In this document: positions 29,566-52,898 of the stretch, piece after piece
Layout of the letters: the number at the start of each line of letters is the position of its first letter
Numbering within the stretch: position 1 is the stretch's first letter
Virus record (IMG/VR): IMGVR_UViG_3300032516_000008
Location: 29,092-93,091 of that record
Origin: a virus
Lineage: Duplodnaviria > Heunggongvirae > Uroviricota > Caudoviricetes
DNA: 64,000 nt
Strand: one strand, 5' to 3'
Program-made: the position numbers and the translations under genes
Notes under the pieces: generated by a model
The model's input: the letters and a program-made list of their open reading frames with translations, nothing else
What the model was told of the DNA's origin: nothing
Database searches by the model: none

Positions 29566-29573
29566 GTTTGTTG

Positions 29574-30730: not shown

Positions 30731-31312
30731 ATGAACGAGTGGTGGGTAGGTATGTCAGCAATTGAACACGTCTATTGGTTCATTGCAGTTATAGCAAGCA
30801 CAGCATTGCTTATTCAAGCAATCTTGACATTTGCTGGTATGTCGCATGATTCTATTGACTTTCATCACGATGTGTCAAGTGGTCATGGTGACATGCAAGC
30901 TCATTTTCAATTGCTAAGTATTAGATCGCTAGTTGCGTTTTTCACAATGCTTGGTTGGAGTGGCATAGCACTAATTCATGCAAAAGGTGCATTGAACAAT
31001 CCTGTTTTGGTTGTAGTTGTATCGATTATAGTCGGTAGTGTATTTGCTGTGGTAGTTGCTGGTTTTTTCTATGGAATGACAAAGTTAGTTAGTAGTGGTA
31101 ATGTAGATATCAAAAATACGATTGGTCGAACAGCTAGTGTTTATTTGAAAATTCCTGCTAATATGTCAGGTACTGGAAAAGTGAATGTCATGATTCAAAG
31201 TCAAGTAAGAGAATTTGATGCCATGAGTAAAGATCTTACGGCAATTCCGTCAGGGTCACCAGTAAAAGTAGTAGATGTCCAAAACAATACTTTAATCGTT
31301 GAAAGGGGCTAG
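30731..31312 (+). CDS. YqiJ/NfeD-like membrane protein
   Basis: Two N-terminal transmembrane helices plus a C-terminal OB-like soluble domain. AAGGAGGG ribosome-binding site. Lies immediately upstream of the flotillin gene, as in the yqiJK operon. Confidence 0.55.
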   Translation: MNEWWVGMSAIEHVYWFIAVIASTALLIQAILTFAGMSHDSIDFHHDVSSGHGDMQAHFQLLSIRSLVAFFTMLGWSGIALIHAKGALNNPVLVVVVSIIVGSVFAVVVAGFFYGMTKLVSSGNVDIKNTIGRTASVYLKIPANMSGTGKVNVMIQSQVREFDAMSKDLTAIPSGSPVKVVDVQNNTLIVERG

Positions 31313-31313
31313 T

Positions 31314-32708
31314 ATGTATCTGTTGATTGCTGCAGCAGCTGGCGTCATTATCTTGTTCGTGCTTTTTATCTCGGTTCTTACGAGGTATAAGAAGTGTCCG
31401 TCAGACAAGATATTGATTGTGTATGGAAAAGTGGCAAAGGGTAGTACTTCAAAGTGCATTCATGGTGGTGCGGCTTTTGTATGGCCTATCATTCAAGACT
31501 ATGCATATTTGGGTCTTACTCCAATGCAAATTGAAGTACCATTGCAAAATGCATTGAGCAAACAGAATATTCGAGTCGATGTGCCTTCAAATTTCACAGT
31601 TGGTATTTCAACAAAGCCTGAGATTATGACGGCTGCTGCTGAACGACTTTTGGGTTTACAATCCAAAGAGATTCAGGGTATAGCTAGGGAAATTATCTTT
31701 GGCCAACTTCGTTTGTCAGTAGCAACAATGGACATCGAAGAAATTAATGCTGATAGAGACAAGTTCCTTGAGAACATTTACAAGAATGTTGAAGTTGAAC
31801 TTGAGAAGATCGGTCTGCGATTGATCAATGTCAATATTACTGACATTCAAGATGAATCTGGTTACATCAAGTCTCTTGGGCAGAAAGCTGCTGCAGAAGC
31901 ACTTAACAAGGCTAAGAAAGATGTAGCTGAGAAAGATCGTGATGGAGCAATTGGTCAGGCAAATGCTGATAGAGATAAGAGAGTGCAAGTTGCAGGTGCA
32001 AATGCTACAGCTGTTGAAGGTGAAAATGCAGCTCAGGTGACAATTGCAAATTCAACATCAGATATGCGACAGAAGAAAGCTGAAGCTGAACGAGCAGCTA
32101 TAGCATCAGAAAAGGTTGCAACAGCAAAAGCTTTGCAAGAAGCCTATGCTGCTGAACAAATTGCTGAAGCGACTCGTGCAGACAGAGAAAGAGCTACACA
32201 GACTGCCAATGATGTTGTCAAAGCTGAGATTGACAAAAAGAAGATTGAGATTGCGGCTAGTGCTCAGGCTGAGAAACTGCGACTTGAAGCTAGAGGTCAA
32301 GCAGATGCCACATATGCTAACCTTGAAGCTCAGGCAAGAGGACTTAAGGAGATGTTGATCAAGCAGGCTGAGGGATTGAAAGAGATTGTTGCAGCTGCCG
32401 GTAACAATCCACAGCAGACTCAGCAAGCAGCAATGTTGATGATTATCGATAAGTTGCCTGAAATAGTCAAGACTCAGGTTGAGGCTATTAAGGGTATTAA
32501 GATCGATAAGGTTACTGTTTGGGACGGTATGGGTAATGGTTCAGGCAATGGCAAACCAACGACTGCCAATTTCTTGTCAGGTATGCTTGGATCAGTTCCT
32601 CCATTGCAAGACTTGTTCAATATGGCAGGAATGAAGTTGCCAGAGTATTTGGGAAAGACTCCTGAGAAACCGGCAATTACAACTGAAACAACTGAAGTTA
32701 AGGGCTAA
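31314..32708 (+). CDS. flotillin-like SPFH-domain protein (YqiK/FloA-like)
   Basis: N-terminal transmembrane helix, SPFH/band-7 domain, and a long Ala/Glu/Gln-rich coiled-coil (EA repeats). Confidence 0.75.
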   Translation: MYLLIAAAAGVIILFVLFISVLTRYKKCPSDKILIVYGKVAKGSTSKCIHGGAAFVWPIIQDYAYLGLTPMQIEVPLQNALSKQNIRVDVPSNFTVGISTKPEIMTAAAERLLGLQSKEIQGIAREIIFGQLRLSVATMDIEEINADRDKFLENIYKNVEVELEKIGLRLINVNITDIQDESGYIKSLGQKAAAEALNKAKKDVAEKDRDGAIGQANADRDKRVQVAGANATAVEGENAAQVTIANSTSDMRQKKAEAERAAIASEKVATAKALQEAYAAEQIAEATRADRERATQTANDVVKAEIDKKKIEIAASAQAEKLRLEARGQADATYANLEAQARGLKEMLIKQAEGLKEIVAAAGNNPQQTQQAAMLMIIDKLPEIVKTQVEAIKGIKIDKVTVWDGMGNGSGNGKPTTANFLSGMLGSVPPLQDLFNMAGMKLPEYLGKTPEKPAITTETTEVKG

Positions 32709-38033: not shown

Positions 38034-38236
38034 CAGTTCAGATTGACATTCGTGGTAATATCGGTCAGCAAATCAAGACTATTCGTCAATCATTGGGTTT
38101 GACATTGGCTGATGTTGCAAAGGCTATCAATGAATCAGAACCATTGCTATCTTATTACGAAAACAATAAGCGTCAACAAAGTGTAGATATTCTCAGAAAG
38201 TTTTTGAATTTCTGTGATCGAGTGAAAAAATGCTAG
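38021..38236 (+). CDS. XRE-family HTH transcriptional regulator
   Basis: IRQSLGLTLADVAKAINESEPLLSYYENNKR. Confidence 0.6.
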   Translation: MASMTVQIDIRGNIGQQIKTIRQSLGLTLADVAKAINESEPLLSYYENNKRQQSVDILRKFLNFCDRVKKC

Positions 38237-38934
38237 TGAAGATTACAACTCAATGCCAAATGGGCTGCAGTCATTGCATGGAAGATGCAAAATCTGTTGG
38301 CGAACACATGTCTCTTGAAACTTTCAAGAAAGCACTTGATTTCATTGAGCGTGTATATTCTGGTCAACGTATTATACTGGTAAGCGGCGGTGAACCGACT
38401 GATCATCCGCAGATTCAACAGTTTTTGAATGAATTGAAAGACTGGAATGCCGTTCTTCTAAGTAATGGACTATTTTGGTCTGATCTTAAGACTCGAGAAA
38501 TGATTCTAGCATCAAATGTCCTTATTCAAGTCTATAATGATCCAAAATATTATCCACTGAAAGTAGAACCTATCGATCATCCTCGAGTACTATTTGCTGA
38601 TAAAATCAACCTTCTTAGTCCCATTGGACGAGCAAGAAATTTGAGTGAGATTGCAGGTCGCACATCGCCACTATGTTTTAACTTCAGAAGCTTTTGCAAA
38701 ACGCTGAGAGACTTTCAAAAGGCAGTAATGCTTTTGAGAACAAAGGGTAAAATTTGTTCACCATCAATTGATGTTCATGGCAATGTCGTTACTGGTGAAT
38801 CTAGATTTTGTTATAAGATCGGCACTGTTGATTCTTCATTCGATGAGCTGCTACAAAACACACTTAATATGTCATGTAATAAGTGTGGCCTCGAAGACAA
38901 TCTTCCAGCAGTATACAAGAACGCAATTCACTAG
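38230..38934 (+). CDS. small radical SAM enzyme (QueE-like or activase-like)
   Basis: CQMGCSHC (C-x3-C-x2-C) and glycine-rich SAM motif VSGGEPT. Length 234 aa. Confidence 0.6.
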   Translation: MLVKITTQCQMGCSHCMEDAKSVGEHMSLETFKKALDFIERVYSGQRIILVSGGEPTDHPQIQQFLNELKDWNAVLLSNGLFWSDLKTREMILASNVLIQVYNDPKYYPLKVEPIDHPRVLFADKINLLSPIGRARNLSEIAGRTSPLCFNFRSFCKTLRDFQKAVMLLRTKGKICSPSIDVHGNVVTGESRFCYKIGTVDSSFDELLQNTLNMSCNKCGLEDNLPAVYKNAIH

Positions 38935-39233: not shown

Positions 39234-39866
39234 TCAGGTCTGTTGTCGAAGATTTGACGCTAACCATTTTTTTGCCTCTTGACTAGTGTATATCTCATTG
39301 TTATCAATTATCTTACAAAATTGTTCGTATGAAATCTTTGGGAAAGCATGAATCGCTGAATCTAGTGAAACATTGTAGATTTTAGATGGACAATCTTTAT
39401 AGACATCAAATCTAGCATTGCCTCGTATATAGACCATTTCATCTTGTGTACCGCGATGTACAATGTCATGAAAGTGACTCTTATCATTAACAAATCGTCC
39501 ATCAAATCCAAGCAGATAAATCTCTTTGAATTTCAAAGCTATACCTAGCGATAATGAGAATAGTCCAACTAAATACGGATGATACAGTCCTTTTGACAAC
39601 CCGTCTAGTCCATGATATTCTTTTGCTGATAATAGCTTGAATACGTCTGCTGGCACATCACGACTGTCTCTTGTGATTTTAACGCATTTGAGGTTGTTTA
39701 TTACTTGCTGATGTTTAGAGTAGAAATCTCGATCAATCCAGATTAGTGCTGTGGGATCGTAATAGTGGCAAACGAAATTCAAACCAAATGTGAACTCATG
39801 ATTGAGCTTAGCTAAGTCAAATCCTTTTATGCTTGATCCGCCGCCGATGATTACTAATCTATTCAT
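39234..39866 (-). CDS. Cst-II-like (GT42 family) sialyl/nonulosonic-acid transferase-like protein
   Basis: RLVIIGGGSSIKGFDL matches Cst-II VIIAGNGPSLKEID. LGIALKFKEIYLLGFDGRF matches Cst-II ALGYKEIYLSGIDFY. A conserved NDKSHFH region is present. Confidence 0.5.
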   Translation of the reverse strand: MNRLVIIGGGSSIKGFDLAKLNHEFTFGLNFVCHYYDPTALIWIDRDFYSKHQQVINNLKCVKITRDSRDVPADVFKLLSAKEYHGLDGLSKGLYHPYLVGLFSLSLGIALKFKEIYLLGFDGRFVNDKSHFHDIVHRGTQDEMVYIRGNARFDVYKDCPSKIYNVSLDSAIHAFPKISYEQFCKIIDNNEIYTSQEAKKWLASNLRQQT

Positions 39867-42800
39867 TTTTGTATTTTCTTGATGCTTGAAAATGCTCTAT
39901 AACAGGTTTGCCAGCATCTTTCATTAAGTCAAATATTTGGCAATAAGTGGATGGCAAATGAAATACTTTCAATGAATGTAATGTGCTGACTGCCTCATGC
40001 AAATAAGATTGATCGAGTCTGTATTTCGTTCTATCTGCATTTACTAATTCAGTCCATTTAGCTAACAATTTTAGTGCACCGATAGTACAGTTGAAATACA
40101 TAGTGCCACCAAGAAGTTCAGTACTACCATTTGATTTAATTCTTGGATGAAATGCGAAATCAAACTCATTTAATGTAGATAGAAGTTGCGGATCTTGCTG
40201 TATTATGGCATCACAATCTACCCATACTACAGGTCGGTTATGCTTATTTAGCATGTCTTTGACAAATGTTGTACGATAGAAACAGTTATTGAACCAACTT
40301 CCTTGTGAATTAATACCGACAATTTCATAATCTAAATTGAATCGCCTTAATGAAGCTTCCAACTTCTTATATTCGTTTTCATAGCCTGTATTTTTTGTGT
40401 AGTAAGATATGAATAATGGTTTTACTAATCTAGATATCACAGGAGCGCATTCGACTTTTGCTATGTCATCAGCACATTCAACTTTTGCTATGTCAGGAAC
40501 ACATTCGATTTTTGCTATGTTAGATATGGGTTGCAATTTCAACGGTTCATGTTCAATTTGTATTTGCGGTTTAGTTACTGGTTTTGCTAGTTCACATTGA
40601 ATTAATTCTGAAAAAGTAGTTTGCTCAGTTTGTACTTCTAAGTTGTCGAATGTTAATTCATTTGAATTTGGTAATGACTGTATGAATTCATCGCCAAGAT
40701 TTTTTATGTCTTTGAATTTGTTTTGCATAATTAATTCAAACGCTTTATCCCATAAACTTTGATTAGCGGCCCAACTAAAAAACTTCAAAATATACTGTCT
40801 ATTTCTCTTACCTACTTCTTGTCGCAGTGACTTACTATTACTAAGTAATGACAATCGATTGTTCATTTCTGAAATAACATTTTCTTCAGGCAATGTACTT
40901 ACGATCCATTCTTTATCTAACAACATTCCTATACAACCAACCCTTGTTGAAACTACAGGCAATCCACAAGACATGGCCTCTAATACTACTCTTGGCATAC
41001 ACTCGCTAATACTTGTCAATACTAGTACATCAATTGAGTGATAAAATAACTTCATGTCATTTAATGATCTACCATCAGAGAAAAACTGCTTGCCCCAGTC
41101 ACTTTTCTTAATAACATTGAATTTTAGTTTATTTAGTAAATGTGGTCGCTTTACATCACGCAAACAACCGGCCCAACCAACTATAAAGTTATTGTCATCT
41201 TTCACGGCTGCAGTAAAGAAGTTGGTATCAATTGATTCTGGTAGAAACGCTACAGACTTATTAGGATACATGTTGTTCAAACAGTCCAGATGTCTCATAG
41301 ATATTGACACTATAAGATCTGGGTCAGTGTCATATTTTAGTTTTGATTCTCCACCATAACCACCAATAACTTTGATGCCTTTTTGTTTTAATACTGAAAC
41401 TAGACTGTTGATTTTAGCATGATCAATATTTGGTGCATGAATGTACACTATGTCTGCATCTATGTCAGTGACATCGATTAATCGTTTGTATGTGATATCA
41501 TGCGAAGAATACAGTTGTTGTTCTTTTGCTACAAAATAGTATGCCCAACCAAATTGGTCAATTATTTTGCAAATTCTAAGCTTTTTAGGAACTGGTTTAG
41601 ACTGTGTTACTATTTGTTTTGTTAGTGGCTTATATTCATCCCAATTTCTGAAACACATTTTGCATGTGTCTGTCATCTTATTAACGTCACATAAACTGTC
41701 TCTTAGTTTTCTAGCACTATCATTTAACCAAACATTTTCAAAATTCTTAAGTGATCCATTAGCTCTATTTGGTGCATAAACTGATCCGCAAAATGTTACA
41801 CTACCATTGCCGTTTATTCCTATTGTAGTCCAAGGTATTTGACAATTGCAACGAACTTCATTACGGTTTATTAATGTCGGAAATACCTTAATCAAATTAG
41901 CTTCGGGCAGATCTTGTAATGCATCAATTTTATGCTTGTCATCATATGTTAACACTTCTTGCCAAAACGACTCGTCATTATAATCGCTTGCTAAGTGCGG
42001 TAACAGATTTAATAAGTGCACAGTCTTTACACCTAAAGAGTTCACTAACGTCAAAAATTCAGGAATATATCGTAGATTACTTTTTGTGCATACGTAGGAA
42101 CAATACGTGGGTAAACCATTACTTACGCAGAGTCCTATTCCTTGTAAGACAGTATTAAATATCAATGATTTGTTTATTTCATTATGCATCTTTGCATTTG
42201 ACGCGTTTAAGCTTATAGATATATAGTCTGGTCTGTTTGCTAATAGGCTATTGATTTTTTCAACTATTAGTGATCCGTTTGTTATTAGTCCAACAACTTT
42301 GTTTCTTGATTTTAGAAATGATATGATGTCAAAAAGACTATCACATAAAAAAGGTTCTCCGTAGCCAGCACAACAAACGCCTCTAATTGATGGATGTTTG
42401 ATTAACAGATCACTGACATTTTTTAGTGTCATGTCAATCGACTGTTCAATTGATTGCGAATTACGATAGCAAAATCTGCAGTTGAAATTACATTTTGATG
42501 TTAGATACAGGTTTGCACTAACAGGTGGATTCATAAAACTTCTCATTGTTTCAAACGATGTATTTCTGTTTCTAAAGTCTTTCTCACCAACTTGAACAGC
42601 GTCTGTAATCAGACTTGTATATGCACCAAGTAAAGCATATAAATTCTGTTCAGTTGGTTCAGCTTTCAACATTGACCATAACTTTACAGGTAGGTCACTC
42701 ATCCAGATATATTTGAACTGTTTGAATTTGTCAAGTAAATTACGATATCTATCAAATATTCCTTCATTAGACCAATATGGTGCATGCTGGCCAACTACAT

Positions 42801-43245
42801 TAGTCATTAATGTAATTTCATATTTGTCATTTTTCATTCTATCCATTTGTTCAACTTCGCACGACATTGAGGACAAGTCGTATGGATATCTCTTAAGTAT
42901 GTCGTGCTTGTAAATCTTGACACCATAAATTTCAAAATTCAAATGTACATCAATCAACTTACAAGCAATCATAGCTGTCATTGGTGCAGATTCAACAGCA
43001 TACTTGTGTAAGGTTTCAATACCGTTTGCATTCATGACCATATCTTCATCAATTTCAATATAGTATCGAGTCTTGCAAGAATCTATCATGCACTGAAAAG
43101 CTCTTGACATTGGATGAACGTTTTTGATAATCTCGACTTTGAATGAAACTGTTTGAGAGTTTAATGACTGCAAGCATGCGTCATAGCAAGGATTATGACC
43201 GCTACTTATGACAAAAACTGTTAAGTCAGATAAAAACACGCTCAT
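39859..43245 (-). CDS. four-domain enzyme: GT2 glycosyltransferase - radical SAM/SPASM - GT4 glycosyltransferase - linker repeats - GT-A (DxD) nucleotide-sugar transferase
   Basis: N-terminal GT2 motifs (VFVISSGHN...SLNSQT, EIDEDM). Radical SAM LTSKCNFNCRFC plus GYGEPFL, with SPASM-like cysteines CNCQIPW...GSVTFCGSVY. GT4 motif EAMSCGLPVVSTRVG. 3x IAK(I/V)EC linker repeats. C-terminal VWVDCDAII. Confidence 0.7.
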   Translation of the reverse strand: MSVFLSDLTVFVISSGHNPCYDACLQSLNSQTVSFKVEIIKNVHPMSRAFQCMIDSCKTRYYIEIDEDMVMNANGIETLHKYAVESAPMTAMIACKLIDVHLNFEIYGVKIYKHDILKRYPYDLSSMSCEVEQMDRMKNDKYEITLMTNVVGQHAPYWSNEGIFDRYRNLLDKFKQFKYIWMSDLPVKLWSMLKAEPTEQNLYALLGAYTSLITDAVQVGEKDFRNRNTSFETMRSFMNPPVSANLYLTSKCNFNCRFCYRNSQSIEQSIDMTLKNVSDLLIKHPSIRGVCCAGYGEPFLCDSLFDIISFLKSRNKVVGLITNGSLIVEKINSLLANRPDYISISLNASNAKMHNEINKSLIFNTVLQGIGLCVSNGLPTYCSYVCTKSNLRYIPEFLTLVNSLGVKTVHLLNLLPHLASDYNDESFWQEVLTYDDKHKIDALQDLPEANLIKVFPTLINRNEVRCNCQIPWTTIGINGNGSVTFCGSVYAPNRANGSLKNFENVWLNDSARKLRDSLCDVNKMTDTCKMCFRNWDEYKPLTKQIVTQSKPVPKKLRICKIIDQFGWAYYFVAKEQQLYSSHDITYKRLIDVTDIDADIVYIHAPNIDHAKINSLVSVLKQKGIKVIGGYGGESKLKYDTDPDLIVSISMRHLDCLNNMYPNKSVAFLPESIDTNFFTAAVKDDNNFIVGWAGCLRDVKRPHLLNKLKFNVIKKSDWGKQFFSDGRSLNDMKLFYHSIDVLVLTSISECMPRVVLEAMSCGLPVVSTRVGCIGMLLDKEWIVSTLPEENVISEMNNRLSLLSNSKSLRQEVGKRNRQYILKFFSWAANQSLWDKAFELIMQNKFKDIKNLGDEFIQSLPNSNELTFDNLEVQTEQTTFSELIQCELAKPVTKPQIQIEHEPLKLQPISNIAKIECVPDIAKVECADDIAKVECAPVISRLVKPLFISYYTKNTGYENEYKKLEASLRRFNLDYEIVGINSQGSWFNNCFYRTTFVKDMLNKHNRPVVWVDCDAIIQQDPQLLSTLNEFDFAFHPRIKSNGSTELLGGTMYFNCTIGALKLLAKWTELVNADRTKYRLDQSYLHEAVSTLHSLKVFHLPSTYCQIFDLMKDAGKPVIEHFQASRKYKNE
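40445..40525 (-). repeat. 3 x 27-bp tandem repeat encoding IAK(I/V)EC(V/A)xD linker units inside the multidomain gene
   Basis: gcRcattcRaYttttgctatgtYa repeated three times. Confidence 0.8.
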
Positions 43246-43772
43246 ACTTTTGTCGCTTCTACATTTAAGCTAATAAGAGTTCCATTTATTTTATCTTGTG
43301 GAATATATGCTTGACTGTAGTCATCAACATCTGCATGCTCTGTTAGTCTCCAATCATAACGTCTAATATCTTTTGCACCTGCTAATTCAAGTACATGTTT
43401 CAAAGACTTAAAGTCAAATCCTGTATAGTGAAAATTGTACAAGTAATTGCACCTACCAAATATAGGGCCTAGTATTAATGAAATATCATCTGTTTTCTCA
43501 TATACTTTAAGTAGACTTTGCATATCTGGCACAGATATTCTCAATGTACCATTTACTTTTAGCACTCTTAACCATTCATGAAGAACATCTATAATGACTT
43601 TTTTGTGAAAGTGCTCTAATACATGACAACTATAAACTACATCACATGATTCATCTTCAATCATTGGTAGACGATCAACACTATTCACTATATCAATATG
43701 AGGGTATTCTATAACATCAATGTGCGTATAGCCAGGGATATATCGTTTGCCGCAACCTAAATGTAACTTCAT
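43242..43772 (-). CDS. class I SAM-dependent methyltransferase
   Basis: MKLHLGCGKRYIPGYTHID motif I. Confidence 0.6.
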   Translation of the reverse strand: MKLHLGCGKRYIPGYTHIDVIEYPHIDIVNSVDRLPMIEDESCDVVYSCHVLEHFHKKVIIDVLHEWLRVLKVNGTLRISVPDMQSLLKVYEKTDDISLILGPIFGRCNYLYNFHYTGFDFKSLKHVLELAGAKDIRRYDWRLTEHADVDDYSQAYIPQDKINGTLISLNVEATKV

Positions 43773-44731
43773 TATTTTGTCCTTGTTGCAAGTATATTTG
43801 ACAGTTCTAATAATTGATCGTGATAATGTGACTGACAGTCAAATCCTAAGTCTTTACATAGAAATCTCATGCATGACTCAAAAGTTCTCATACCAACTAA
43901 GACTTTTTGATGTTTTGCAATTGATTGCTGATACTCTTGAATTTTTTGTCGCGACATGCTTTTAAGATATTTCATTAGATCAGCTTCAGACCAGAAATCT
44001 CTGTAATCAACGTAGCACTCTTTAGGAATAAATGTTGACGCATCTTTTGGCCCTAAATAAACAGGTATACAACCAGCTGCTATCAAATCGAACGGTTTTT
44101 CAGTCAAGTGACCCAAATCTAATTGACTTTCTATAGCAAAAGCAAACGTATAGTCTGATAGCAGTTTCACTTTAGCAGAATATCGCGGTAAGTTTTTGTC
44201 GCAAGCATCACTAGAATCTTTCTTAATTTCTAATGGTACTGGTTTATCTGAACTTCCATAAACATCCATACCCAAATCTTTGAACTTGCGAATTATAGTG
44301 TTTCTTGGCTCACCATCACGAAAATAGTTGGTTATAACAGTACCAATGAATTTTGATCGGTTATTGACTGGACAACATTCATCTTCAGTAATCCACATCG
44401 GTATCGGCATATATTTAACAGTGTCACCATCAACATCAGTCGAATTATAAGTATAGATTCTTCCAAACTTTTGCTGATATCTTAGTCTAAATCCATGAGG
44501 CTGACGATAACGACCCTCGTAATGAATCAATACTCGTTTTGAATAGTCAAATCTGTCAATGACTGCTGATACTAGTTCTCTGCGAGCAGCATCATAAGGT
44601 TGAAATACTACAAACCAATCATCTTTACTTGGTTCAACATCTGCTGTAATATTTTTGACTTCAATACTACAGTACTTATACCAATGCCAATAAGACATAG
44701 TATAGATCATCGTTGCTCCATCAATTGCCAC
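43772..44731 (-). CDS. GT10-family (alpha-1,3-fucosyltransferase-like) glycosyltransferase
   Basis: YTFAFAIES...GHLTEKPFDLIAAGCIPVYLG matches the FucT motif YKFYLAFENS..DYITEK....GAVPVV. Confidence 0.55.
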   Translation of the reverse strand: MAIDGATMIYTMSYWHWYKYCSIEVKNITADVEPSKDDWFVVFQPYDAARRELVSAVIDRFDYSKRVLIHYEGRYRQPHGFRLRYQQKFGRIYTYNSTDVDGDTVKYMPIPMWITEDECCPVNNRSKFIGTVITNYFRDGEPRNTIIRKFKDLGMDVYGSSDKPVPLEIKKDSSDACDKNLPRYSAKVKLLSDYTFAFAIESQLDLGHLTEKPFDLIAAGCIPVYLGPKDASTFIPKECYVDYRDFWSEADLMKYLKSMSRQKIQEYQQSIAKHQKVLVGMRTFESCMRFLCKDLGFDCQSHYHDQLLELSNILATRTK

Positions 44732-45309
44732 TCTTGCACAGTTAGTAAATTGAGTATTTGCTTTCTATACTTACAAAGAAAAGCAAAATCAAACATTGTT
44801 TCAGCACATTCAAATAATTCTTGCTGTCCTGGCTTTATAATTCCAATGCCTTCATCTACATCAATAGTACAGATTGACAAATTAGGATCAAACATTCTAT
44901 AAAACAATATTGCTTTCCAAACTGATCCGTTCCAATGAGACACAGTAATGTTCTCTGTTTGATGAACTTCTAATTCAGGATTACAATCATGTAAAAGTAT
45001 AATTCCGTCAGTACTCAAACATTTTAGTGAATTTGAAATGTCTTTGATCACTTGAGCTGCTTTGTGATCGCCGTCTATAAAAATGATATCGTATTGACTA
45101 GTATTACTTGAGAAAAATGCATCAGAACTCATAAGATGATTACAGGGATTTACAGGATCAACTGCATCTTTTACTGCAGCACTAATTTTGTTGAAATTGG
45201 CAGATGCATTTCCAATGCCTATTTCAAGATAACGACAATTTTGTTTTTTGCTTGTGTAGAAATTGATGATGTCTGTTCTATTCATGATTTTTTCCAGTAT
45301 GCTCCCCAA
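44707..45309 (-). CDS. SAM-dependent methyltransferase (CmcI/class I-like)
   Basis: IFIDGDHKAAQVIKD...DGIILLHDC. Confidence 0.45.
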   Translation of the reverse strand: MGSILEKIMNRTDIINFYTSKKQNCRYLEIGIGNASANFNKISAAVKDAVDPVNPCNHLMSSDAFFSSNTSQYDIIFIDGDHKAAQVIKDISNSLKCLSTDGIILLHDCNPELEVHQTENITVSHWNGSVWKAILFYRMFDPNLSICTIDVDEGIGIIKPGQQELFECAETMFDFAFLCKYRKQILNLLTVQEWQLMEQR

Positions 45310-45983
45310 GCGTCAATAATGACGATCGGATCGTGAATATTATGTAGTTTTCTAAAATCTTCAACAGCTGTTCTGCAATTTACCCAGTTATAATCATCAA
45401 TAATAACGAACCCATTTTTCTGGACTTTATGATATAACGCAGTTAATGAATCCCAAGTTGACTCATATAAGTCACCATCTAATCTCAATACAGCAATTTT
45501 ATCTATCATACTATTTGTAAGAGTATCTTTGAACCAACCCTTTAGAAATACTACATTAGTGTCTAGTAATGCATACTTTTCAAAATTATGCTTTACTTGA
45601 TCAACATCAACTCTTAAATAGTCAATGGTATGCATAGTACTATTCTTGTCAATTGGATACTTTTCTGTATTAGGCGCAGGCAAACCTTGAAAAGAATCAG
45701 CTACAAACACTTTTCGATCTGTAATATTGTATGCTTTCAAAATACCTTGCATAAAAATTACAGCACCACCACGCCACACACCGGTTTCAATTAGATCACC
45801 TTGCACATCATTTGCTATAACACTTTCGACACAATGTTGTATATTGTCAAGTCGTTTACGGCCTATCATAGTGAACGCTCGCTTAGGCCAATACGTACCA
45901 TTAGTTGTATGAGTCGTCTCTTCTTCATATATTATGTCAAGCAACGATCGCTTCAGCAAATCTAAGTACAGCTCTTTACACAT
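45282..45983 (-). CDS. TylF/MycF-family macrocin-type sugar O-methyltransferase
   Basis: FTMIGRKRLDNIQHCVESV...GDLIETGVWRGGAVIFMQGIL...RKVFVADSFQGLP matches the TylF signature. Confidence 0.7.
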   Translation of the reverse strand: MCKELYLDLLKRSLLDIIYEEETTHTTNGTYWPKRAFTMIGRKRLDNIQHCVESVIANDVQGDLIETGVWRGGAVIFMQGILKAYNITDRKVFVADSFQGLPAPNTEKYPIDKNSTMHTIDYLRVDVDQVKHNFEKYALLDTNVVFLKGWFKDTLTNSMIDKIAVLRLDGDLYESTWDSLTALYHKVQKNGFVIIDDYNWVNCRTAVEDFRKLHNIHDPIVIIDAWGAYWKKS

Positions 45984-46796
45984 TTAGTACTCAAATCTAT
46001 TCATTGTGTTAACGCTTGCATGTATTTGACACGTGTTATTAATGTCACCTCGTAAAATACATATCCATAAGCCTGCATTGTTAGTATCATAAACTACATA
46101 CTTACACTTACTCAAAATAGCAATCGCAGCCAAATAATTGACACCCAAATCGTAATTACTCATTTTTGTATCACGTTGTAAATTATGCATCACTTGATCT
46201 GTTTTTGTCAACGGCATTTCTTCAATGTGAAACGAATTAGGTAACTCGTGTTTGAAATAGTCTAATGCCTGTTGTTGATCTGTCTGTATAAGTACCCTAT
46301 AATTTGAAATGTCCTTAATCGGACTGATTGGTTTCAAATAATACTTTGGATGCACTCTTGGCACTTCAAGAATTTTATCAGTACCTCTATAAAGAATTGC
46401 AATAGTGTGATCAAAATCTATACTGTACTTTTGAATAAATGATTCTTGTTTAACTATTACTTCACTAGACAAATTGAAATATGTATCTCTAATTGGTTTT
46501 AGTACACTAAAATCAAACTTATTACAATCACCAATCATTGCATTAAAATAAATGTCTTGTCCTGTCTTAATATCACTGTTAACTGTCGTAAAATATAGAT
46601 CATAAACATTTCGACTCAATCTGTCAGGCTTGTTCCAAGCTGACGTATATGGCCATAATATTTTCACAAGTCTTGACGCATTTTTGTGTATCGATAGTAG
46701 ACTCTTAAATGTCACGCTAGCATTAGATAACAAACCACAATCATGTTTGTCAAGACTTAATGTGCTATTTTCTTGATCGTATGTTACGCCGTACAT
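45984..46796 (-). CDS. hypothetical protein in glycosylation island
   Basis: ORF tightly packed in the operon (ATGA overlaps). Confidence 0.4.
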   Translation of the reverse strand: MYGVTYDQENSTLSLDKHDCGLLSNASVTFKSLLSIHKNASRLVKILWPYTSAWNKPDRLSRNVYDLYFTTVNSDIKTGQDIYFNAMIGDCNKFDFSVLKPIRDTYFNLSSEVIVKQESFIQKYSIDFDHTIAILYRGTDKILEVPRVHPKYYLKPISPIKDISNYRVLIQTDQQQALDYFKHELPNSFHIEEMPLTKTDQVMHNLQRDTKMSNYDLGVNYLAAIAILSKCKYVVYDTNNAGLWICILRGDINNTCQIHASVNTMNRFEY

Positions 46797-47848
46797 TATA
46801 GGTTCTTTTCTAATATTCTAATTTCTCTAGAACTAACTATTACTTCTCTAGTTTTGAAGCCTGTCAATTGCAATATGTACTCGTCAAAATTGTCTCTTTT
46901 AGATTCATACATCCATGAGAACTGATCTTCATTCGGATTTGGTAATGTATAGATTATAAACTTAGTCTTTTGTGCTACTGTTTGCAAGAATTTTTCAAAC
47001 ACTTCTATAGGACATAATCTCGATATATGATGCAGTATTGCTAGACACAATGTGCAATCTGCACTTTCACTAGTCTCAATGTAGTCTATTGCATTTGTAT
47101 TATGACAAGAAAACCCTATTTTGTTTAGCAGTATACTTGCTATTTGAAATCTAATTTTGTCAGATTCAATGCCTATACCATGCTTAATCAGATCTTTTAG
47201 TTTGTAAAGAGTGAAACCGTGACAAGTACCCAAATCTAATACGCTGTCAATCTTGTTTTGTTTGAAGAAGTCGCAGATAATTTGCTCTTTGTTACCGTCA
47301 ATTGCTGTGGCCCAGTCACTAAAGTCAGGATGCGGTATCGGCTGATATAGCATTTTGTTAGGATACAAATCTTCAATTTCTTTGTATAGTTCAGCCCATC
47401 CCGGTAATCGCTCACATATTGTAACTTCTATAGGCAACCGCTTGAAAGTCAATAAGCTTATTCTATGCATGCCATCCCAAATGTCAATGGCGCCATTACA
47501 GCGAACTTTCACAGGTCTATATCCATAATAGTGCGCAGAATTCGTATCAGTTTGCAATATGCTATATTCCTCTTGCCACTTAGGAGCTATCAAATACATA
47601 GCTCTATATCTAGCACATTGCTTCACAATGTCATCTTCATTTTTCAATATTCCGCCCCACACAACATTGTCAGCTATAAACATTGACATTAACCATTTGT
47701 AATAGAAAGTAGATTCTAAAGGTATGTCAATATTTTCTTGCCATTGCTGCGCGGTCAAATAATGAGGACCAGATTTAATGAAATCTAGTAAATCAGTACT
47801 CCAAGGATCATTACCAATTAGTACTTTTTTCGGTATCATAATTTTCAT
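46796..47848 (-). CDS. protein with C-terminal class I SAM methyltransferase domain
   Basis: DSVLDLGTCHGFTLYKL motif I. Confidence 0.5.
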   Translation of the reverse strand: MKIMIPKKVLIGNDPWSTDLLDFIKSGPHYLTAQQWQENIDIPLESTFYYKWLMSMFIADNVVWGGILKNEDDIVKQCARYRAMYLIAPKWQEEYSILQTDTNSAHYYGYRPVKVRCNGAIDIWDGMHRISLLTFKRLPIEVTICERLPGWAELYKEIEDLYPNKMLYQPIPHPDFSDWATAIDGNKEQIICDFFKQNKIDSVLDLGTCHGFTLYKLKDLIKHGIGIESDKIRFQIASILLNKIGFSCHNTNAIDYIETSESADCTLCLAILHHISRLCPIEVFEKFLQTVAQKTKFIIYTLPNPNEDQFSWMYESKRDNFDEYILQLTGFKTREVIVSSREIRILEKNL

Positions 47849-47915
47849 CTAAGAGATCAAAAAAAAAGCTGATAACATATTCTATGTCATCAGCTTTTTC
47901 AAATTTATGAATTAG

Positions 47916-48596
47916 TTACACTCTTCTAAAAGGCTGCTCAAACGGTGACGGTGCAGTTATACTAACTCCCATTGCTGCAGGTCTGCCAGTTGCAGGTTTT
48001 GCAACAACATTAACGATATAATTGTAAGCATCACTCCAAATTGATCCATCATTCACTCGTACAGGTATTGATCGTGAAGTAGTTGACAAACTACCTTCAA
48101 TTAAAATCTTCACTGATGTACTGGTTGATGAAATTATCGAGTATCCTATACCAGTAGAAGCTAATAGTGTGAATTGTTGAGGATATATCTTACTAGTAGT
48201 AACAATCAAATTGTTAAGAGCTATGGTAAGATATGAACCAATGTACAACTTAGGAAAACTAGTCTGATTTGAAATAACAGGCATCTCAACAACTGATACA
48301 CTAAGACCAAACCAATCACTCCATGTTGAACCACCGTCATTACTAATTCTAACAGCGACGGATAATGAACCAACATAACTAGTTGTAGGAATGACGTCAA
48401 ATTCTTCTACTATACCTGAATCTTGATTCACTGCATAATGAGCTCCAGCTTGACCTTCAATCACCCAATCTTTTCCACTACCATCAGGAAAATCAGGATC
48501 ATCAGTGAATAGATCTACCAAATGAACTACTAATGTCTTGTTTTTTCCTGAAACAATCGGACTAACTCTTTGACCAGTAATAACAGGAGTTGCCAT
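47916..48596 (-). CDS. Ser/Thr-rich Ig-like (cadherin/BIG-like) domain protein, first gene of minus-strand island
   Basis: AGGA ribosome-binding site on the minus strand. Two beta-sandwich-like segments with S/T-rich stretches (SSTSTSV, LSTTSRS). Confidence 0.45.
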   Translation of the reverse strand: MATPVITGQRVSPIVSGKNKTLVVHLVDLFTDDPDFPDGSGKDWVIEGQAGAHYAVNQDSGIVEEFDVIPTTSYVGSLSVAVRISNDGGSTWSDWFGLSVSVVEMPVISNQTSFPKLYIGSYLTIALNNLIVTTSKIYPQQFTLLASTGIGYSIISSTSTSVKILIEGSLSTTSRSIPVRVNDGSIWSDAYNYIVNVVAKPATGRPAAMGVSITAPSPFEQPFRRV

Positions 48597-49053: not shown

Positions 49054-49125
49054 GGAGACTTAGCTGAGATGGATTAGCGAGTGGTTGAAGCCCACTAGAG
49101 GACAGCTCGATACTGTCAGTCTCCA
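49054..49125 (+). tRNA. tRNA-Phe (anticodon GAA)
   Basis: Manual fold: acceptor GGAGACT/AGTCTCC, D-arm GCTG-AGATGGAT-TAGC, anticodon arm AGTGG-TTGAAGC-CCACT, T-arm GACAG-CTCGATA-CTGTC. Confidence 0.75.
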
Positions 49126-49196
49126 TTCTTCATGCGGTCAAGTTCTAGACTTTATCTTGTATTGATAGTTCGTAATGTACTAACAAGGAGTATATT

Positions 49197-50438
49197 ATGA
49201 ACATATGTAAATGCGGTAAATCATTCAAAAATGCAGGAGCGCATGCTATTCATCGTAATAGTTGTCTTTATGTTAAGCATCCAAAAGAATGTGAACTCAT
49301 TAGATCAGATTATAAAAATAAGTTGTTAATTTCAGATATCAAGAAAAAATATTGTTTCACAAGAAATGAAATTCATGCAGTTGTCAAAGACATATTACGA
49401 AGTGATAGCGAGACAAATAAAATTGCCCATACAAACCCTAATAGAAAAAAATATCATAATATCAATAGTAATTTTGCTAAGAAAGTGATGTGTGAAAAAT
49501 GTAAAAGAACAATTAGTGTTGTAAATCTTTATAAACATACTTGTGTAAGTGAAGAAGTTCGTGAAAGTATAATCAAGTTATATAATCTAGGCTTATCACC
49601 AAGGGATATAAGAGCGAAAGGATATGACAAAAGGGTCATTAGTTTTTCATTAAGTCATAAAAGACGATCTTTGTCTGATTCTATTAAAGCTAGATATAAA
49701 AATCATCCAGAGACATTTAAGCTTTCTAAAGCAACAAAAGATAAGATTAGACAATCAATATTAAAAGCTAGACAAAATGGAATTGCTTATAGTTGGACAA
49801 GAAAGAAGCCATCATATGCTGAAAGTAAATTTCACGAATTTTTAGTTAAGTTAGGATTGAAAGAAAATGTTGATTTTTTTACAGAATTTCCATTTTCTAT
49901 TTATAGAGCAGATTTTTATTTTCCAAAACATAAACTTGTAATTGAGATTGATGGTGAACAACATGTAAAATATGATGTAATACGAGAACGAGATAAACGA
50001 AAAGATGAATATTTGAAAAATCATGACATTAAAGTTTTAAGGATAAGATGGAAAGATGTGCATCATAATCATGAAGTAATTTATGATGAAATTAAAGACA
50101 TTTTGAATAATTCACAAAACTTTGAATTAAGACTAGATACTTTCACTAAAGCACAAGCTAGACGGTTACAACTATTGACAGAGTTTGAAATAAATCGTGA
50201 TCAATTAAAAATTGAAAAGCAACAAATAAAAAAGCTAGAGCAACAAGCTAGAACTGCACAACAAACTAAAGACATTTTACAAAGTGATTTTACAAAGCGT
50301 GGCACAGTCGAAAATCTTAGTAATAAATGGAATGTCTCACATACACAAGTTAGACGGCTCGTGAATAGATATATGACATGCTGTGCGGGCAACCGCTTAG
50401 GGGTTCGAGTGCCTTCTCGTCAGCCATTAGTTGCATGA
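49197..50438 (+). CDS. free-standing homing-endonuclease-like protein (N-terminal Zn-finger/NUMOD-like repeats + DUF559/Vsr-like PD-(D/E)xK nuclease domain)
   Basis: CKCGK...H...C motifs and a C-terminal YRADFYFPKHKLVIEIDGEQH...RDKRKDEYLKNHDIKVLRI. Confidence 0.6.
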   Translation: MNICKCGKSFKNAGAHAIHRNSCLYVKHPKECELIRSDYKNKLLISDIKKKYCFTRNEIHAVVKDILRSDSETNKIAHTNPNRKKYHNINSNFAKKVMCEKCKRTISVVNLYKHTCVSEEVRESIIKLYNLGLSPRDIRAKGYDKRVISFSLSHKRRSLSDSIKARYKNHPETFKLSKATKDKIRQSILKARQNGIAYSWTRKKPSYAESKFHEFLVKLGLKENVDFFTEFPFSIYRADFYFPKHKLVIEIDGEQHVKYDVIRERDKRKDEYLKNHDIKVLRIRWKDVHHNHEVIYDEIKDILNNSQNFELRLDTFTKAQARRLQLLTEFEINRDQLKIEKQQIKKLEQQARTAQQTKDILQSDFTKRGTVENLSNKWNVSHTQVRRLVNRYMTCCAGNRLGVRVPSRQPLVA

Positions 50439-50443
50439 TTTGT

Positions 50444-50520
50444 TGGCCCGTAGCTCAGCTGGCAGCAGCGAGCGGCTGTTAACCGCTAGGTCGTAAGTTC
50501 AAACCTTACCGGGCCAGCCA
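50444..50520 (+). tRNA. tRNA-Asn (anticodon GTT), CCA encoded
   Basis: Acceptor TGGCCCG/CGGGCCA, anticodon arm AGCGG-CTGTTAA-CCGCT, T-arm GTAAG-TTCAAAC-CTTAC. The D-arm is atypical. Confidence 0.7.
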
Positions 50521-50594
50521 TTTTTTTTAACTGAAAGGAGATATGATGACGTCCAAACCAATGCGCACTTAGTGGCGCTAACAAAGGAGTCATC

Positions 50595-50831
50595 ATGTCG
50601 CATCCGGTTAGCAAGAGAGATCGCTTTCTTGTTGGGGTCAAGAAGAGTAAGAAACGCGTAACTAACTTTTACACGTATCTTACGAAGTTAGAGCATCCTG
50701 AATGGGTTGCAAGAGCAGAACAGATGCGAAGAAATACTACAAAGACTTGTTCATGTAGCGGGTGCGGCAATCCGAGAAAGTATTTTGGTGAGAAAACAAT
50801 GCAAGAAAAACGTTACGGAGAGTTGGAGTAA
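50595..50831 (+). CDS. hypothetical protein (Cys motif CSCSGCGNP)
   Basis: ORF with GGAG ribosome-binding site. The 3' end overlaps the start of the tRNA-Ser gene. Confidence 0.35.
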   Translation: MSHPVSKRDRFLVGVKKSKKRVTNFYTYLTKLEHPEWVARAEQMRRNTTKTCSCSGCGNPRKYFGEKTMQEKRYGELE

Positions 50832-50901
50832 TGGTATCTCAGCAGTTTGCTAAACTGCCGACCGAAAGGTCTTGTCGGTTCGAATCCGGCACTCTCCGCC
50901 A
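50817..50901 (+). tRNA. tRNA-Ser (anticodon GCT), long variable arm, CCA encoded
   Basis: Acceptor GGAGAGT/ACTCTCC, anticodon arm GCAGT-TTGCTAA-ACTGC, variable arm GACC-GAAA-GGTC, T-arm GTCGG-TTCGAAT-CCGGC. Confidence 0.8.
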
Positions 50902-50921
50902 TTCTAGTCTTTGAGGATCTG

Positions 50922-51272
50922 ATGTGGATAGACGATAAAAGTGATGGTTGTGTGTATGACACAATTGATTGTAATAAGTGTGGCAATTGCGGTCGGAAGT
51001 TTGACATAGAAGATGAGGATAAATTGGACTTCATTGTAGAAAATGAAACAGTAAATATATCATTTCAGTCAATGAATGACATGTTACAGATGCATGTGCA
51101 TTGCGGAATGAAGTCCAAGAAGATACCGTTGCTATTAGAGAAACATCAAGTAACAAAGATCTTGAGTAAACTTGATGATCTTAAAGAAAGAACATTTGAA
51201 TCATTTGACTATTTTACAATGATAGTTGCAGGCTGTGCAGAAACAGTAATGAAAGGCGGAATGCACAGATGA
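50922..51272 (+). CDS. hypothetical protein
   Basis: The track ORF at 50847 starts inside the tRNA-Ser gene, so the likely start is Met at about 50922. Confidence 0.3.
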   Translation: MWIDDKSDGCVYDTIDCNKCGNCGRKFDIEDEDKLDFIVENETVNISFQSMNDMLQMHVHCGMKSKKIPLLLEKHQVTKILSKLDDLKERTFESFDYFTMIVAGCAETVMKGGMHR

Positions 51273-51658: not shown

Positions 51659-51661
51659 TGT

Positions 51662-51736
51662 GACGGCATAGCCAAGCTGGTAAGGCAGCAGTCTGCAAAA
51701 CTGTTATCGGGAGTTCAAATCTCCCTGTCGTCTCCA
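51662..51736 (+). tRNA. tRNA-Cys (anticodon GCA), CCA encoded
   Basis: Acceptor GACGGCA/TGTCGTC (one GU pair), anticodon arm GCAGT-CTGCAAA-ACTGT, T-arm GGGAG-TTCAAAT-CTCCC. Confidence 0.7.
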
Positions 51737-51743
51737 TATAAGT

Positions 51744-51816: not shown

Positions 51817-51886
51817 TTTCATTGACAATTGGCATGATTAATCGTATATTGGAATTTTCTATCATTCTATGTAAGGAGAAAATGAA

Positions 51887-52891: not shown

Positions 52892-52898
52892 TGGAAAT

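Follow-up and report, generated by a model that had tools for sequence, protein, structure and literature searches.

We describe herein a viral polypeptide in which three glycosyltransferase modules are joined to a radical S-adenosylmethionine (SAM) enzyme, a combination that we found in no characterised viral or bacterial glycan pathway in the searches made. The protein, 1128 amino acids (aa) long, is encoded on the minus strand at positions 39859..43245 of a 64,000-nucleotide stretch of tailed-phage DNA (positions 29,092 to 93,091 of IMG/VR record IMGVR_UViG_3300032516_000008), which is referred to below as the window. Multi-module glycosyltransferases with tailoring domains were known before, as were sugar-tailoring radical SAM enzymes (BtrN, DesII, BlsE). 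To our knowledge, the latter are known only as stand-alone enzymes of antibiotic or nucleoside pathways, and the viral glycan machineries described so far comprise transferases and methyltransferases only. The N-terminal glycosyltransferase and the radical SAM module that follows it, together called the core, belong to a family that is real, conserved, almost entirely virus-borne and uncharacterised, and for which a mechanism can be proposed from sequence and gene context. With moderate confidence, we favour a role in the cytoplasmic assembly of a methylated, end-modified glycan that includes one radical step, with virion proteins as the likely acceptor. The parts of the protein are as follows.

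39859..43245, minus strand: whole open reading frame (ORF), in the order GT2-like / radical SAM with twitch domain / GT4 / linker / PF03407-type GT-A (ORF, Pfam, orthologue alignment)
42541..43245, minus strand: GT2-type GT-A glycosyltransferase module, aa 1-235 (AlphaFold2 (AF2), Foldseek, Pfam in relatives, conservation)
41611..42540, minus strand: radical SAM core and twitch-type auxiliary-cluster domain, aa 236-545 (Pfam PF04055, PDB profile matches)
42469..42492, minus strand: CX3CX2C (C252, C256, C259), predicted ligands of the radical SAM [4Fe-4S] cluster (in 36/36 true cores aligned)
42346..42366, minus strand: GYGEPFL, aa 294-300, the 'GGE' SAM-binding motif (G294-Y-G296-E297-P298 conserved)
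41653..41844, minus strand: four predicted auxiliary-cluster cysteines, aa 468-531, C468...G-X4-C486...C528-X2-C531 (36/36 cores)
40636..41610, minus strand: GT4-type GT-B glycosyltransferase module, aa 546-870 (Pfam)
40441..40635, minus strand: inter-domain linker, poorly conserved, aa 871-935 (orthologue alignment)
40440..40520, minus strand: 27-bp tandem repeat in three copies, IAK(I/V)EC(V/A)(P/D)(D/V) (TRF score 113)
39862..40440, minus strand: PF03407-type (nucleotide-diphospho-sugar transferase) GT-A module, aa 936-1128 (Pfam in orthologues, AF2, Foldseek)

Integrity and architecture of the fusion protein

The protein is the product of one ATG-started ORF with no frame break, and the other two frames of the same strand hold 116 and 139 stop codons across its span. 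The ATGA at its start is shared with the stop of the upstream methyltransferase gene, and its TAG stop (39859-39861) lies 8 nt inside the downstream gene; such overlaps are the usual signature of a translationally coupled operon. Exactly the same 1128-aa protein is recorded on 9 contigs, and the DNA of contigs L131 and L132, from different samples, is 100% identical to that of the window over 6.6-7.4 kb (L numbers denote loci or contigs, and P numbers homologous proteins). A seemingly shorter gene cassette in L132 turned out to be a contig-end truncation, its DNA being identical to that of the window. Seven orthologues (86, 70, 65, 64, 61, 57 and 53% identical) keep the fused order of GT2-like, radical SAM and GT4 modules. 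Six of these are full-length, down to 57% identity, and the 53% one (P0007) lacks the C-terminal module only.

That the GT4 and C-terminal modules exist elsewhere as separate genes or proteins (P0056, P0067, P0070, P0088) might raise the suspicion that separate genes were joined here by a chimeric assembly, a frameshift or read-through. The stop-ridden alternative frames, the identical protein and DNA on other contigs and the fused order retained from 86 to 53% identity exclude a pseudo-fusion of this kind, to which we assign next to no probability.

The first-pass annotation of this DNA, made from the letters alone, had read the gene as a single polypeptide fusing two or three glycosyltransferase folds with a radical SAM/SPASM domain. 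The single polypeptide is borne out by the clean frame, the nine contigs and the fused orthologues, which also answer the search for homologous fusions that had been proposed; the glycosyltransferases are indeed there, and their number is three. Each motif named in that annotation lies at the residues given for it: EIDEDM at 64-69, CNFNCRFC at 252-259, GYGEPFL at 294-300, CNCQIPW at 466-472, FCGS at 485-488, CKMCF at 528-532, EAMSCGLPVVSTRVG at 756-770, the IAK repeats at 910, 919 and 928, and VWVDCDAII at 1007-1015. Domain annotation with HMMER placed both Radical_SAM and Glycos_transf_1 above their gathering scores. For the N- and C-terminal domains, single-sequence and profile searches of the PDB returned nothing or noise, so that fold comparison was needed; AF2 models of the two modules, compared by Foldseek, both matched GT-A structures.

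The GT2-like N-terminal module

The GT2-like module of the window copy has no Pfam match of its own at E<=1. Weak matches to Glycos_transf_2 (PF00535) were obtained for 10 of 14 family members (best 8.6e-6), and P0010 scores 24.9 bits vs a cutoff of 23.3. The AF2 model, built from 14 sequences, reached a mean confidence (pLDDT) of 92.4, and with it Foldseek returned 344 PDB matches at E<=1e-3, the top ones all being GT2 enzymes (E 3e-9). Among the matches are SpsA, PcManGT, TarP, WrtF, RmlT, and cellulose and hyaluronan synthases. The DxD motif, D66-E-D68 (43042-43050), is invariant in all 118 copies compared, 29 of them fused to a radical SAM module and 89 unfused. The GT2 N terminus with a DxD in EIDEDM, as originally proposed, is therefore well founded in both fold and conservation. 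The module also occurs in bacterial multi-glycosyltransferase proteins of up to 2178 aa. Three of its cysteines (C24, C57 and C129) were considered as a third Fe-S site; the idea found no support, as they are equally conserved in copies without a radical SAM module and C129 is variable.

The radical SAM module

The Pfam family Radical_SAM (PF04055) matches aa 247-397 with an E value of 1.6e-17 (64.6 bits vs a cutoff of 29.5), and this score, with the CX3CX2C and GGE motifs, supports the canonical radical SAM core of the first-pass annotation. A further cysteine just ahead of the GGE motif, C291, is conserved in 34 of 36 cores. C386 had been considered as a catalytic hydrogen donor for epimerisation; it is present in only 13 of 37 sequences and is not a family feature.

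A full SPASM domain, with two auxiliary clusters, carries the seven-cysteine motif CX9-15GX4C - gap - CX2CX5CX3C - gap - C. An Fe-S extension is present here, as the mention of SPASM-like cysteines had implied, but its four conserved cysteines follow the twitch layout: among the 36 cores aligned, no CX5CX3C was found after C531 and the domain contains no further cysteine. Consistently, the Pfam SPASM model (PF13186) matches aa 468-531 with 20.1 bits, just under its cutoff of 21.5, and lies above the cutoff in P0009-P0011. By its motif the extension is of the twitch pattern and not a full SPASM domain, and it is predicted to bind one cluster. The term twitch domain denotes a shortened SPASM domain with a single auxiliary cluster, which in BtrN is fully cysteine-ligated (PMC9012708).

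When the module was used for a profile search of the PDB, it matched MoaA (1.5e-17), PqqE (5.7e-17, with the Fe-S extension included in the alignment), the nucleoside-sugar decarboxylase BlsE (1.2e-16) and BtrN (1.5e-14), together with viperin-like enzymes, SkfB, NifB, DesII, anSME, SuiB and CteB. Of the radical sugar tailorings suggested in the first-pass annotation (epimerisation, C-methylation, dehydration or deamination), class B C-methylation is unlikely, because no cobalamin-binding domain appeared among the Pfam matches or the 25 NCBIfam matches listed.

Inteins of ~330-350 aa, which carry LAGLIDADG or HNH domains, split the radical SAM module of five stand-alone cores, and their two insertion sites are independent. 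One site is at the third cysteine of CX3CX2C (P0009 and P0010, equivalent to aa 259 of the window protein) and the other lies inside the GGE motif (P0008, P0011 and P0012, equivalent to aa 292/293). Inteins typically home to critical sites of important proteins. Their placement thus suggests that the radical SAM module is functional and under selection.

Stand-alone bacterial relatives of the radical SAM module

The closest relative that is not fused to a transferase is P0229 (E 1.7e-48 to the core profile). P0229 and a second relative, P0232, have the same four-cysteine layout, and both proteins end right after the CX2C. The P0229 gene adjoins genes for two GT4 enzymes, a GT2 enzyme and an initiating phosphoglycosyl transferase (Bac_transf); the gene upstream of it is not a GT2-like module, and the notion of a split core at this locus was dropped. 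The P0232 gene has a GT2 gene on one side and an RGP/GT75-like gene on the other, with a Wzx-type flippase also adjacent. Of the other members of the P0229 family, P0250 (L138 9001-10008) lies on a 570-kb bacterial contig with genes for Wzt (with Wzt_C), a DegT aminotransferase, a hexapeptide acetyltransferase, GFO/IDH/MocA oxidoreductases and GT4 enzymes. In P0250 and in P0266 (L139 9001-10002), the radical SAM gene directly follows a HisH/HisF-like pair, and in L139 it directly precedes an NAD-synthase-like gene. This arrangement resembles the WbuX/Y/Z acetamidino-sugar set, and in the literature searched no paper ties a radical SAM enzyme to a set of that type. The P0229 family looks like an unrecognised radical step in amino-sugar tailoring, and its HisH/HisF-like and NAD-synthase-like neighbours suggest a role at the level of nucleotide-sugars. 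An uncharacterised stand-alone radical SAM family in polysaccharide loci widens the question to bacterial surface glycans.

The GT4 module, the linker repeat and the C-terminal module

The GT4 signature that had been noted is supported both by Pfam and by the active-site pattern. Glycos_transf_1 (PF00534) matches aa 705-817 (E 6.3e-12, 45.8 bits vs a cutoff of 26.4), Glyco_trans_1_4 matches at E 2.3e-11, and the E-X7-E pattern, read from the sequence, corresponds to E748 and E756 in SECMPRVVLEAM (40978-41004).

The three IAK(I/V)EC linker repeats are present in this protein as described, but they are not conserved: in the alignment they are absent from the orthologues, even from the 86%-identical one. 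The repeat is a recent slippage event without evident function.

For the C-terminal module, PF03407 matches all seven orthologues (best E 1.3e-6), and the window copy scores 20.3 bits vs a cutoff of 22. Its DxD, D1010-C-D1012 (40210-40218), is invariant. The best fold match is domain 1 of the PBCV-1 protein A064R (A064R-D1; E 2.5e-5, TM score 0.59, for a model with a pLDDT of 72.8). Together these results agree with the C-terminal GT-A-like domain that VWVDCDAII had suggested.

The conserved core and its distribution

Homologues were sought by an exhaustive HMMER search of 1.84 billion representatives and by a profile search. The stable unit that emerged is a GT2-like module followed directly by a radical SAM module. 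It occurs as stand-alone proteins of ~530-570 aa, which fall into dozens of 50%-identity clusters and share 31-51% identity with the query, and also behind other modules in larger proteins (850-1370 aa). The GT4 module varies in position: it follows the core in the window protein, is N-terminal in P0013, and is encoded by a separate gene in L087, L088, L091, L129 and L130. The C-terminal module is also found on its own (P0088). Thus, the radical SAM domain does stand between glycosyltransferases in the window protein, as first described, but the conserved design is GT2-like plus radical SAM, and the other glycosyltransferases are swappable.

Family members carry generic names only ('radical SAM protein', 'MoaA/NifB/PqqE/SkfB family'). 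Among 185,579 species-representative genomes, the full core was found in four contigs of metagenome-assembled genomes (MAGs) only. The other 76 loci kept from that scan have the GT2-like module alone, usually right after a GT4, with no adjacent radical SAM gene. In IMG/VR, by comparison, ~26 viral contigs match the full core, including contigs of 388, 364, 269 and 203 kb. None of the deposited phage genomes carries the core and a megablast of the region gave no match there; tblastn of the fusion against deposited phages returned fragments only, with 34% identity over the C-terminal domain in the 462-kb uncultured phage LR756500.1. The orthologue P0006 (57% identical) is labelled by NCBI as coming from a Nitrosarchaeum (archaeal) MAG. 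This label is probably a binning error, because the trigger factor, DnaB and NAD-dependent ligase of the phage are of bacterial type.

Neighbouring genes were counted in 49 viral loci (29 fused, 20 unfused), which share ancestry, so that the counts are not independent of one another. The GT2-like module is most often accompanied by the family of the cassette protein unk350, which resembles the methyltransferase WbdD and is described below (13/29 fused and 9/20 unfused loci). Other recurrent neighbours are GT4 enzymes, methyltransferases, NAD-dependent epimerase/dehydratases and a family of ~285 aa. The last has a P-loop-like motif, 'GxxxCGSTLL', that by eye makes it a putative sulfotransferase-like family. 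It occurs in 7/29 fused vs 0/20 unfused loci, which are not phylogenetically independent (L005, L007, L102, L116, L123, L128 and L130; for example, L005 4467-5321). Neighbourhood clustering yielded no convincing partner gene specific to the radical SAM module, and no DNA-modification enzyme recurs across the 49 loci. Further contexts of the core include a gene for a 1749-aa multi-glycosyltransferase protein and GT29-like plus GT2 genes. Within a few kb of the core there is also a homologue of the actin-like 'Volactin' (PF25216) in two unrelated large contigs (L002 5155-6201 and L128 18191-19321), and TnpB/Cas12f-like (OrfB_IS605) genes lie near the cassette or core in the related phage contigs L001 (17877-18926) and L130 (13723-14754).

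The gene cassette and its phage

The fusion gene is the eighth of nine minus-strand genes (39234-48596) in an otherwise plus-strand region. The G+C content of this cassette is slightly lower (0.33-0.35 vs 0.36-0.41). Its other eight genes, all on the minus strand, are listed below.

47916..48596, minus strand: 226-aa gene of no assigned function, first of the minus-strand block (window ORF scan)
46796..47848, minus strand: unk350, 350 aa, N-terminal DGxHR and WbdD-type methyltransferase domain (PDB profile search, co-occurrence)
45984..46796, minus strand: 270-aa gene of no assigned function, co-inherited with the cassette (synteny)
45282..45983, minus strand: TylF-family (macrocin-type sugar O-) methyltransferase, 233 aa (Pfam TylF, E 2.7e-91)
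44707..45309, minus strand: Methyltransf_24 methyltransferase, 200 aa (Pfam)
43772..44731, minus strand: GT10 (fucosyltransferase)-like, 319 aa (Pfam Glyco_transf_10, E 7.2e-13)
43242..43772, minus strand: class I SAM methyltransferase, 176 aa (Pfam Methyltransf_11, E 4.3e-8)
39234..39866, minus strand: sialyltransferase-like, 210 aa, downstream of the fusion (PHROG 4603 'alpha-2,3-sialyltransferase', E 1.1e-11, full length; syntenic in L001 and L084)

In all, the cassette encodes five transferase modules, one radical enzyme and a minimum of four methyltransferases. Synteny with the 70%-identical relative L001 extends over the entire cassette, and in the huge-phage contigs L087, L088 and L091 (45-55% identical) a stand-alone core and a GT4 are found together with most of the cassette genes. 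The O9a O-antigen chains of E. coli are terminated by the kinase/methyltransferase WbdD (PMC3482155). Its methyltransferase domain is a homologue of the C-terminal half of unk350 (E 1.8e-19 in a PDB profile search), whose N-terminal half contains a DGxHR motif and weakly matches the ParB/Srx-fold kinase SbnI (E 1.2e-4). From these matches, unk350 could be a non-orthologous 'kinase + methyltransferase' chain-end capper. Homologues of unk350 were found in viral loci only, with none in the 76 bacterial loci.

No transmembrane-strength hydrophobic segment was detected in the nine cassette proteins (maximum KD19 1.46), all of which are accordingly predicted to be soluble. The cassette contains no gene for nucleotide-sugar synthesis or export machinery, and none for a membrane protein, initiating phosphoglycosyl transferase, flippase, transporter or ligase.

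The window also encodes a baseplate wedge protein, DnaB, helicases, an NAD-dependent ligase, an FtsK-like protein, PolX, a Cas4-like nuclease, RtcB and trigger factor, together with 16 tRNAs. The source is a large, uncultured tailed phage without a close deposited relative, its DnaB being at most 26% identical to known ones. A second radical SAM gene (234 aa, 38230-38934, plus strand), 87% conserved in L084, adjoins the cassette on the other strand, and a third (297 aa, 57122-58015, plus strand) lies farther on; the window also holds a gene for a DUF1848 protein (29562-30299, plus strand). Three radical SAM proteins in 64 kb may point to an anaerobic host.

Proposed pathway and alternative explanations

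A glycan-building role of the fusion protein is strongly supported by context, because GT10-like, sialyltransferase-like, TylF-like and WbdD-like genes share the syntenic operon of its gene and because relatives of its radical SAM module occur in polysaccharide loci. In the pathway that we propose, the three transferase modules (GT2-like, a GT-A with DxD; GT4, a GT-B with E-X7-E; and PF03407-type, a GT-A with DxD) would each add a sugar, drawn from host nucleotide-sugars, to a growing oligo- or polysaccharide in the host cytoplasm. The GT10-like and sialyltransferase-like proteins would add further residues, the TylF-like and other methyltransferases would O-methylate the chain, and the WbdD-like protein would cap or modify its end. 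Placed immediately after the GT2-like module in the same chain, the radical SAM module would bind SAM at its CX3CX2C [4Fe-4S] cluster and generate a 5'-deoxyadenosyl radical, which may then abstract a hydrogen from the sugar residue handled by the attached transferase. The single four-cysteine auxiliary cluster would accept or relay an electron, the role that has been proposed for BtrN and other twitch enzymes. A fully cysteine-ligated single cluster fits enzymes that oxidise, taking an electron out of the substrate radical as BtrN does, or that are redox-neutral (PMC9012708), and the outcome would likely be an oxidised (keto), epimerised or otherwise rearranged sugar. A carbohydrate is, on balance, the best-supported candidate substrate for the radical SAM module. 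The acceptor is most probably one or more virion proteins, in view of the chlorovirus and mycobacteriophage precedents discussed below and the lack of any membrane, initiating or export component in the cassette.

Several observations weigh against this reading. The best PDB relatives of the radical SAM module include cofactor- and peptide-modifying enzymes as well as sugar enzymes. The module falls below the curated cutoff of every NCBIfam model listed, as a generic member of the SPASM/twitch clade. Its identity to the relatives in polysaccharide loci is only ~28%, and two other near relatives lie in non-glycan contexts, one in a tungsten-cofactor maturase setting and the other (P0239) among small ORFs. 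The conserved residues of the GT2-like module are the same in the 89 copies without a radical SAM module, so the transferase does not depend on the latter and the coupling is not obligatory. The pLDDT of the C-terminal model, quoted above, is of moderate confidence. The cassette sits among replication and repair genes and not among structural genes, and the part of the genome seen is the 64-kb window, in which 40 ORFs were scanned. In L130, a thymidylate-synthase (ThyS)-like gene of 392 aa and a GT2 gene lie ~6 kb from the core, an arrangement that fits DNA modification. Finally, the observations concern the ORF, its domains, motif conservation, operon synteny and phyletic distribution, and it is from these that we infer the activity of all modules, the sugar as radical substrate, the type of reaction and the acceptor.

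A serious alternative, though one that we hold to be rather unlikely, is that the same enzymology serves a host surface polysaccharide. The acceptor would then be an undecaprenyl-linked O-antigen- or capsule-like polymer at the inner membrane face, with the initiating enzyme and ABC transporter supplied by the host and, for example, superinfection block or receptor change as the purpose. The homology of unk350 to the methyltransferase of an O-antigen chain terminator (PMC3482155) fits this idea, and multi-glycosyltransferase polypeptides together with a terminator are the hallmark of ABC-transporter-dependent O-polysaccharide assembly (PMC11231755). It is also in line with the large bacterial proteins that contain the GT2-like module and with the stand-alone radical SAM relative in a Wzt-containing locus, and modification of the host O-chain has been proposed for glycosyltransferase-rich regions of pelagimyophages (PMC7029224). 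Against it stand the cassette itself, which has neither a transmembrane protein nor an initiating transferase, transporter or ligase, and unk350, which lacks the kinase domain and coiled-coil of WbdD and whose homologues are confined to viral loci, with none in the 76 bacterial ones.

The radical substrate might instead be a residue of the acceptor protein or peptide, which would be oxidised or cross-linked, for instance, before the transferases glycosylate it there or nearby. The profile matches to PqqE, SkfB, SuiB and CteB, whose alignments take in the Fe-S extension, the NCBIfam matches to sactipeptide and other maturases (below cutoff), and the small ORFs flanking the near relative P0239 are all compatible with such a reaction. 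We nonetheless consider it improbable: the cassette has no candidate precursor peptide gene, no recognition-element family of the kind associated with peptides made by ribosomes and modified after translation (RiPPs) is among the Pfam and NCBIfam matches listed, the closest stand-alone relatives belong to nucleotide-sugar or polysaccharide loci, and the module is fused to a transferase and not to a peptide-binding domain. Hypermodification of the phage DNA, with a glycan built on hydroxymethyl-pyrimidines and the radical enzyme tailoring the DNA-linked sugar or the base, seems to us a poor candidate. Phage GT-A and GT-B enzymes do build glycans on 5-hydroxymethylcytosine, in clusters that hold secondary glycosyltransferases, ParB-like proteins and methyltransferases (bioRxiv 10.1101/2023.12.21.572611). 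Replication genes surround the cassette as well as its minimal versions, unk350 carries a ParB/Srx-like DGxHR motif, and the L130 genes point the same way. However, the 40 window ORFs scanned include no 5mYOX/TET, ThyS-like or C5-methyltransferase gene, no hydroxymethylation-type family recurs in the 49 viral loci, the TylF-type, GT10-like, sialyltransferase-like and WbdD-like genes point to extended glycan chains, and the study just cited does not mention radical SAM enzymes.

Relation to known systems

The nearest precedent for the favoured pathway, that of a glycan built in the cytoplasm for virion proteins, is PBCV-1 A064R, a three-domain rhamnosyltransferase / rhamnosyltransferase / methyltransferase that, with A061L, finishes the N-glycan of the capsid protein (PMC9614988). 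Both systems are virus-encoded and, in our case by prediction, soluble and cytoplasmic, both place several transferase modules on one polypeptide, and in both the O-methylation of chain-end sugars falls, or in our case would fall, to a fused or neighbouring methyltransferase (PMC9614988). The C-terminal module is structurally closest to A064R-D1 (PDB 2p6w), with which it has a DxD in common, at 12% sequence identity. Unlike the fusion protein, A064R belongs to a virus of eukaryotic algae and has neither a GT4 nor a radical SAM module, and the giant-virus glycan review cited above makes no mention of radical SAM. A second parallel, likened here by description, is the glycosylation of mycobacteriophage virions, in which capsid and tail-tube subunits receive glycans in the host cytoplasm from phage-encoded glycosyltransferases (Freeman et al. 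2023, as cited in PMC12619734).

The O9a WbdA/WbdD pair and the Klebsiella O-antigen systems likewise combine multi-glycosyltransferase polypeptides with a dedicated chain-end methyltransferase (PMC3482155; PMC11231755). They differ from the cassette in being membrane-associated, using undecaprenyl carriers and needing Wzm/Wzt. Neither Wzm/Wzt nor an initiating transferase was found among the cassette genes or the 40 window ORFs, and these parts could be host-supplied. In unk350 the kinase domain of WbdD is replaced by the DGxHR domain, and no radical SAM component has been described for WbdD-type systems. The phage DNA-glycan clusters of Pyle et al. (bioRxiv 10.1101/2023.12.21.572611) resemble the cassette in bringing together GT-A/GT-B enzymes, secondary glycosyltransferases, ParB-like proteins and methyltransferases. 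What defines them is an adjoining 5mYOX/TET or ThyS-like gene; none turned up among the window ORFs scanned, and no radical SAM enzyme has been reported for such clusters.

Among radical SAM enzymes, the 2-deoxy-scyllo-inosamine dehydrogenase BtrN shares with the module its CX3CX2C and, by prediction for the module, a single four-cysteine auxiliary cluster in a truncated SPASM domain (PMC9012708). BtrN works as a stand-alone enzyme in aminoglycoside biosynthesis; its alignment covers the first ~100 residues only and implies no orthology. The P0229/P0250/P0266 family and P0232 have a cysteine layout identical to that of the module, but they are not fused to a transferase and are cellular, not viral. 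Neither a radical SAM-glycosyltransferase fusion nor a radical SAM step in a viral glycan pathway was found in the curated family libraries, ~400 homologue names and literature searched, whose coverage is incomplete.

We tentatively propose that the GT2-like/radical SAM core is the founding member of a phage class of transferase-tethered radical enzymes, which would tailor a sugar (by keto formation, epimerisation, or C-C or C-O rearrangement) during viral glycan assembly. If true, it would be the first radical SAM chemistry in viral glycosylation and the first radical SAM enzyme physically coupled to glycosyl transfer, and its product might be a sugar residue not yet described. The ~540-aa core is a compact, expressible target for finding a new radical sugar reaction. 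Large phages may decorate their virions, hosts or DNA with chemically unusual, heavily methylated glycans, which could affect host range, evasion of immunity or defence, and the design of phage therapy.

Other features of the window

The 16 tRNA genes form two arrays (49054-52971 and 62859-64004). One of them, at 52898-52971, is an amber-suppressor tRNA with anticodon CTA, called 'Pyl' by ARAGORN. The ORF statistics of the window gave no sign of TAG recoding tied to it; TAG ends 6 of 40 long ORFs, including the fusion, in which read-through would add 13 residues only.

An ORF of 958 aa (11425-14301, plus strand) has neither a PHROG nor a Pfam match. For a larger one of 2157 aa (1307-7780, plus strand), which comes right behind the baseplate-wedge-like gene, PHROG gave no match either; its product may be a fibre or structural protein, and so a possible glycan acceptor. 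The trigger factor homologue (19990-21300, plus strand) is full-length, with Trigger_N, FKBP_C and Trigger_C domains. An NfeD-like gene followed by an SPFH/flotillin-like gene (Band_7, E 9e-28) at 30731-32708 (plus strand) constitutes a membrane-scaffold pair. The first tRNA array is flanked by two DUF559/MTES_1575-type endonuclease-like genes (49197-50438 and 54842-55714, plus strand), the second of which also has NUMOD3 and ROS/MUCR motifs and is followed by RtcB (55715-56878); both are probably homing endonucleases.

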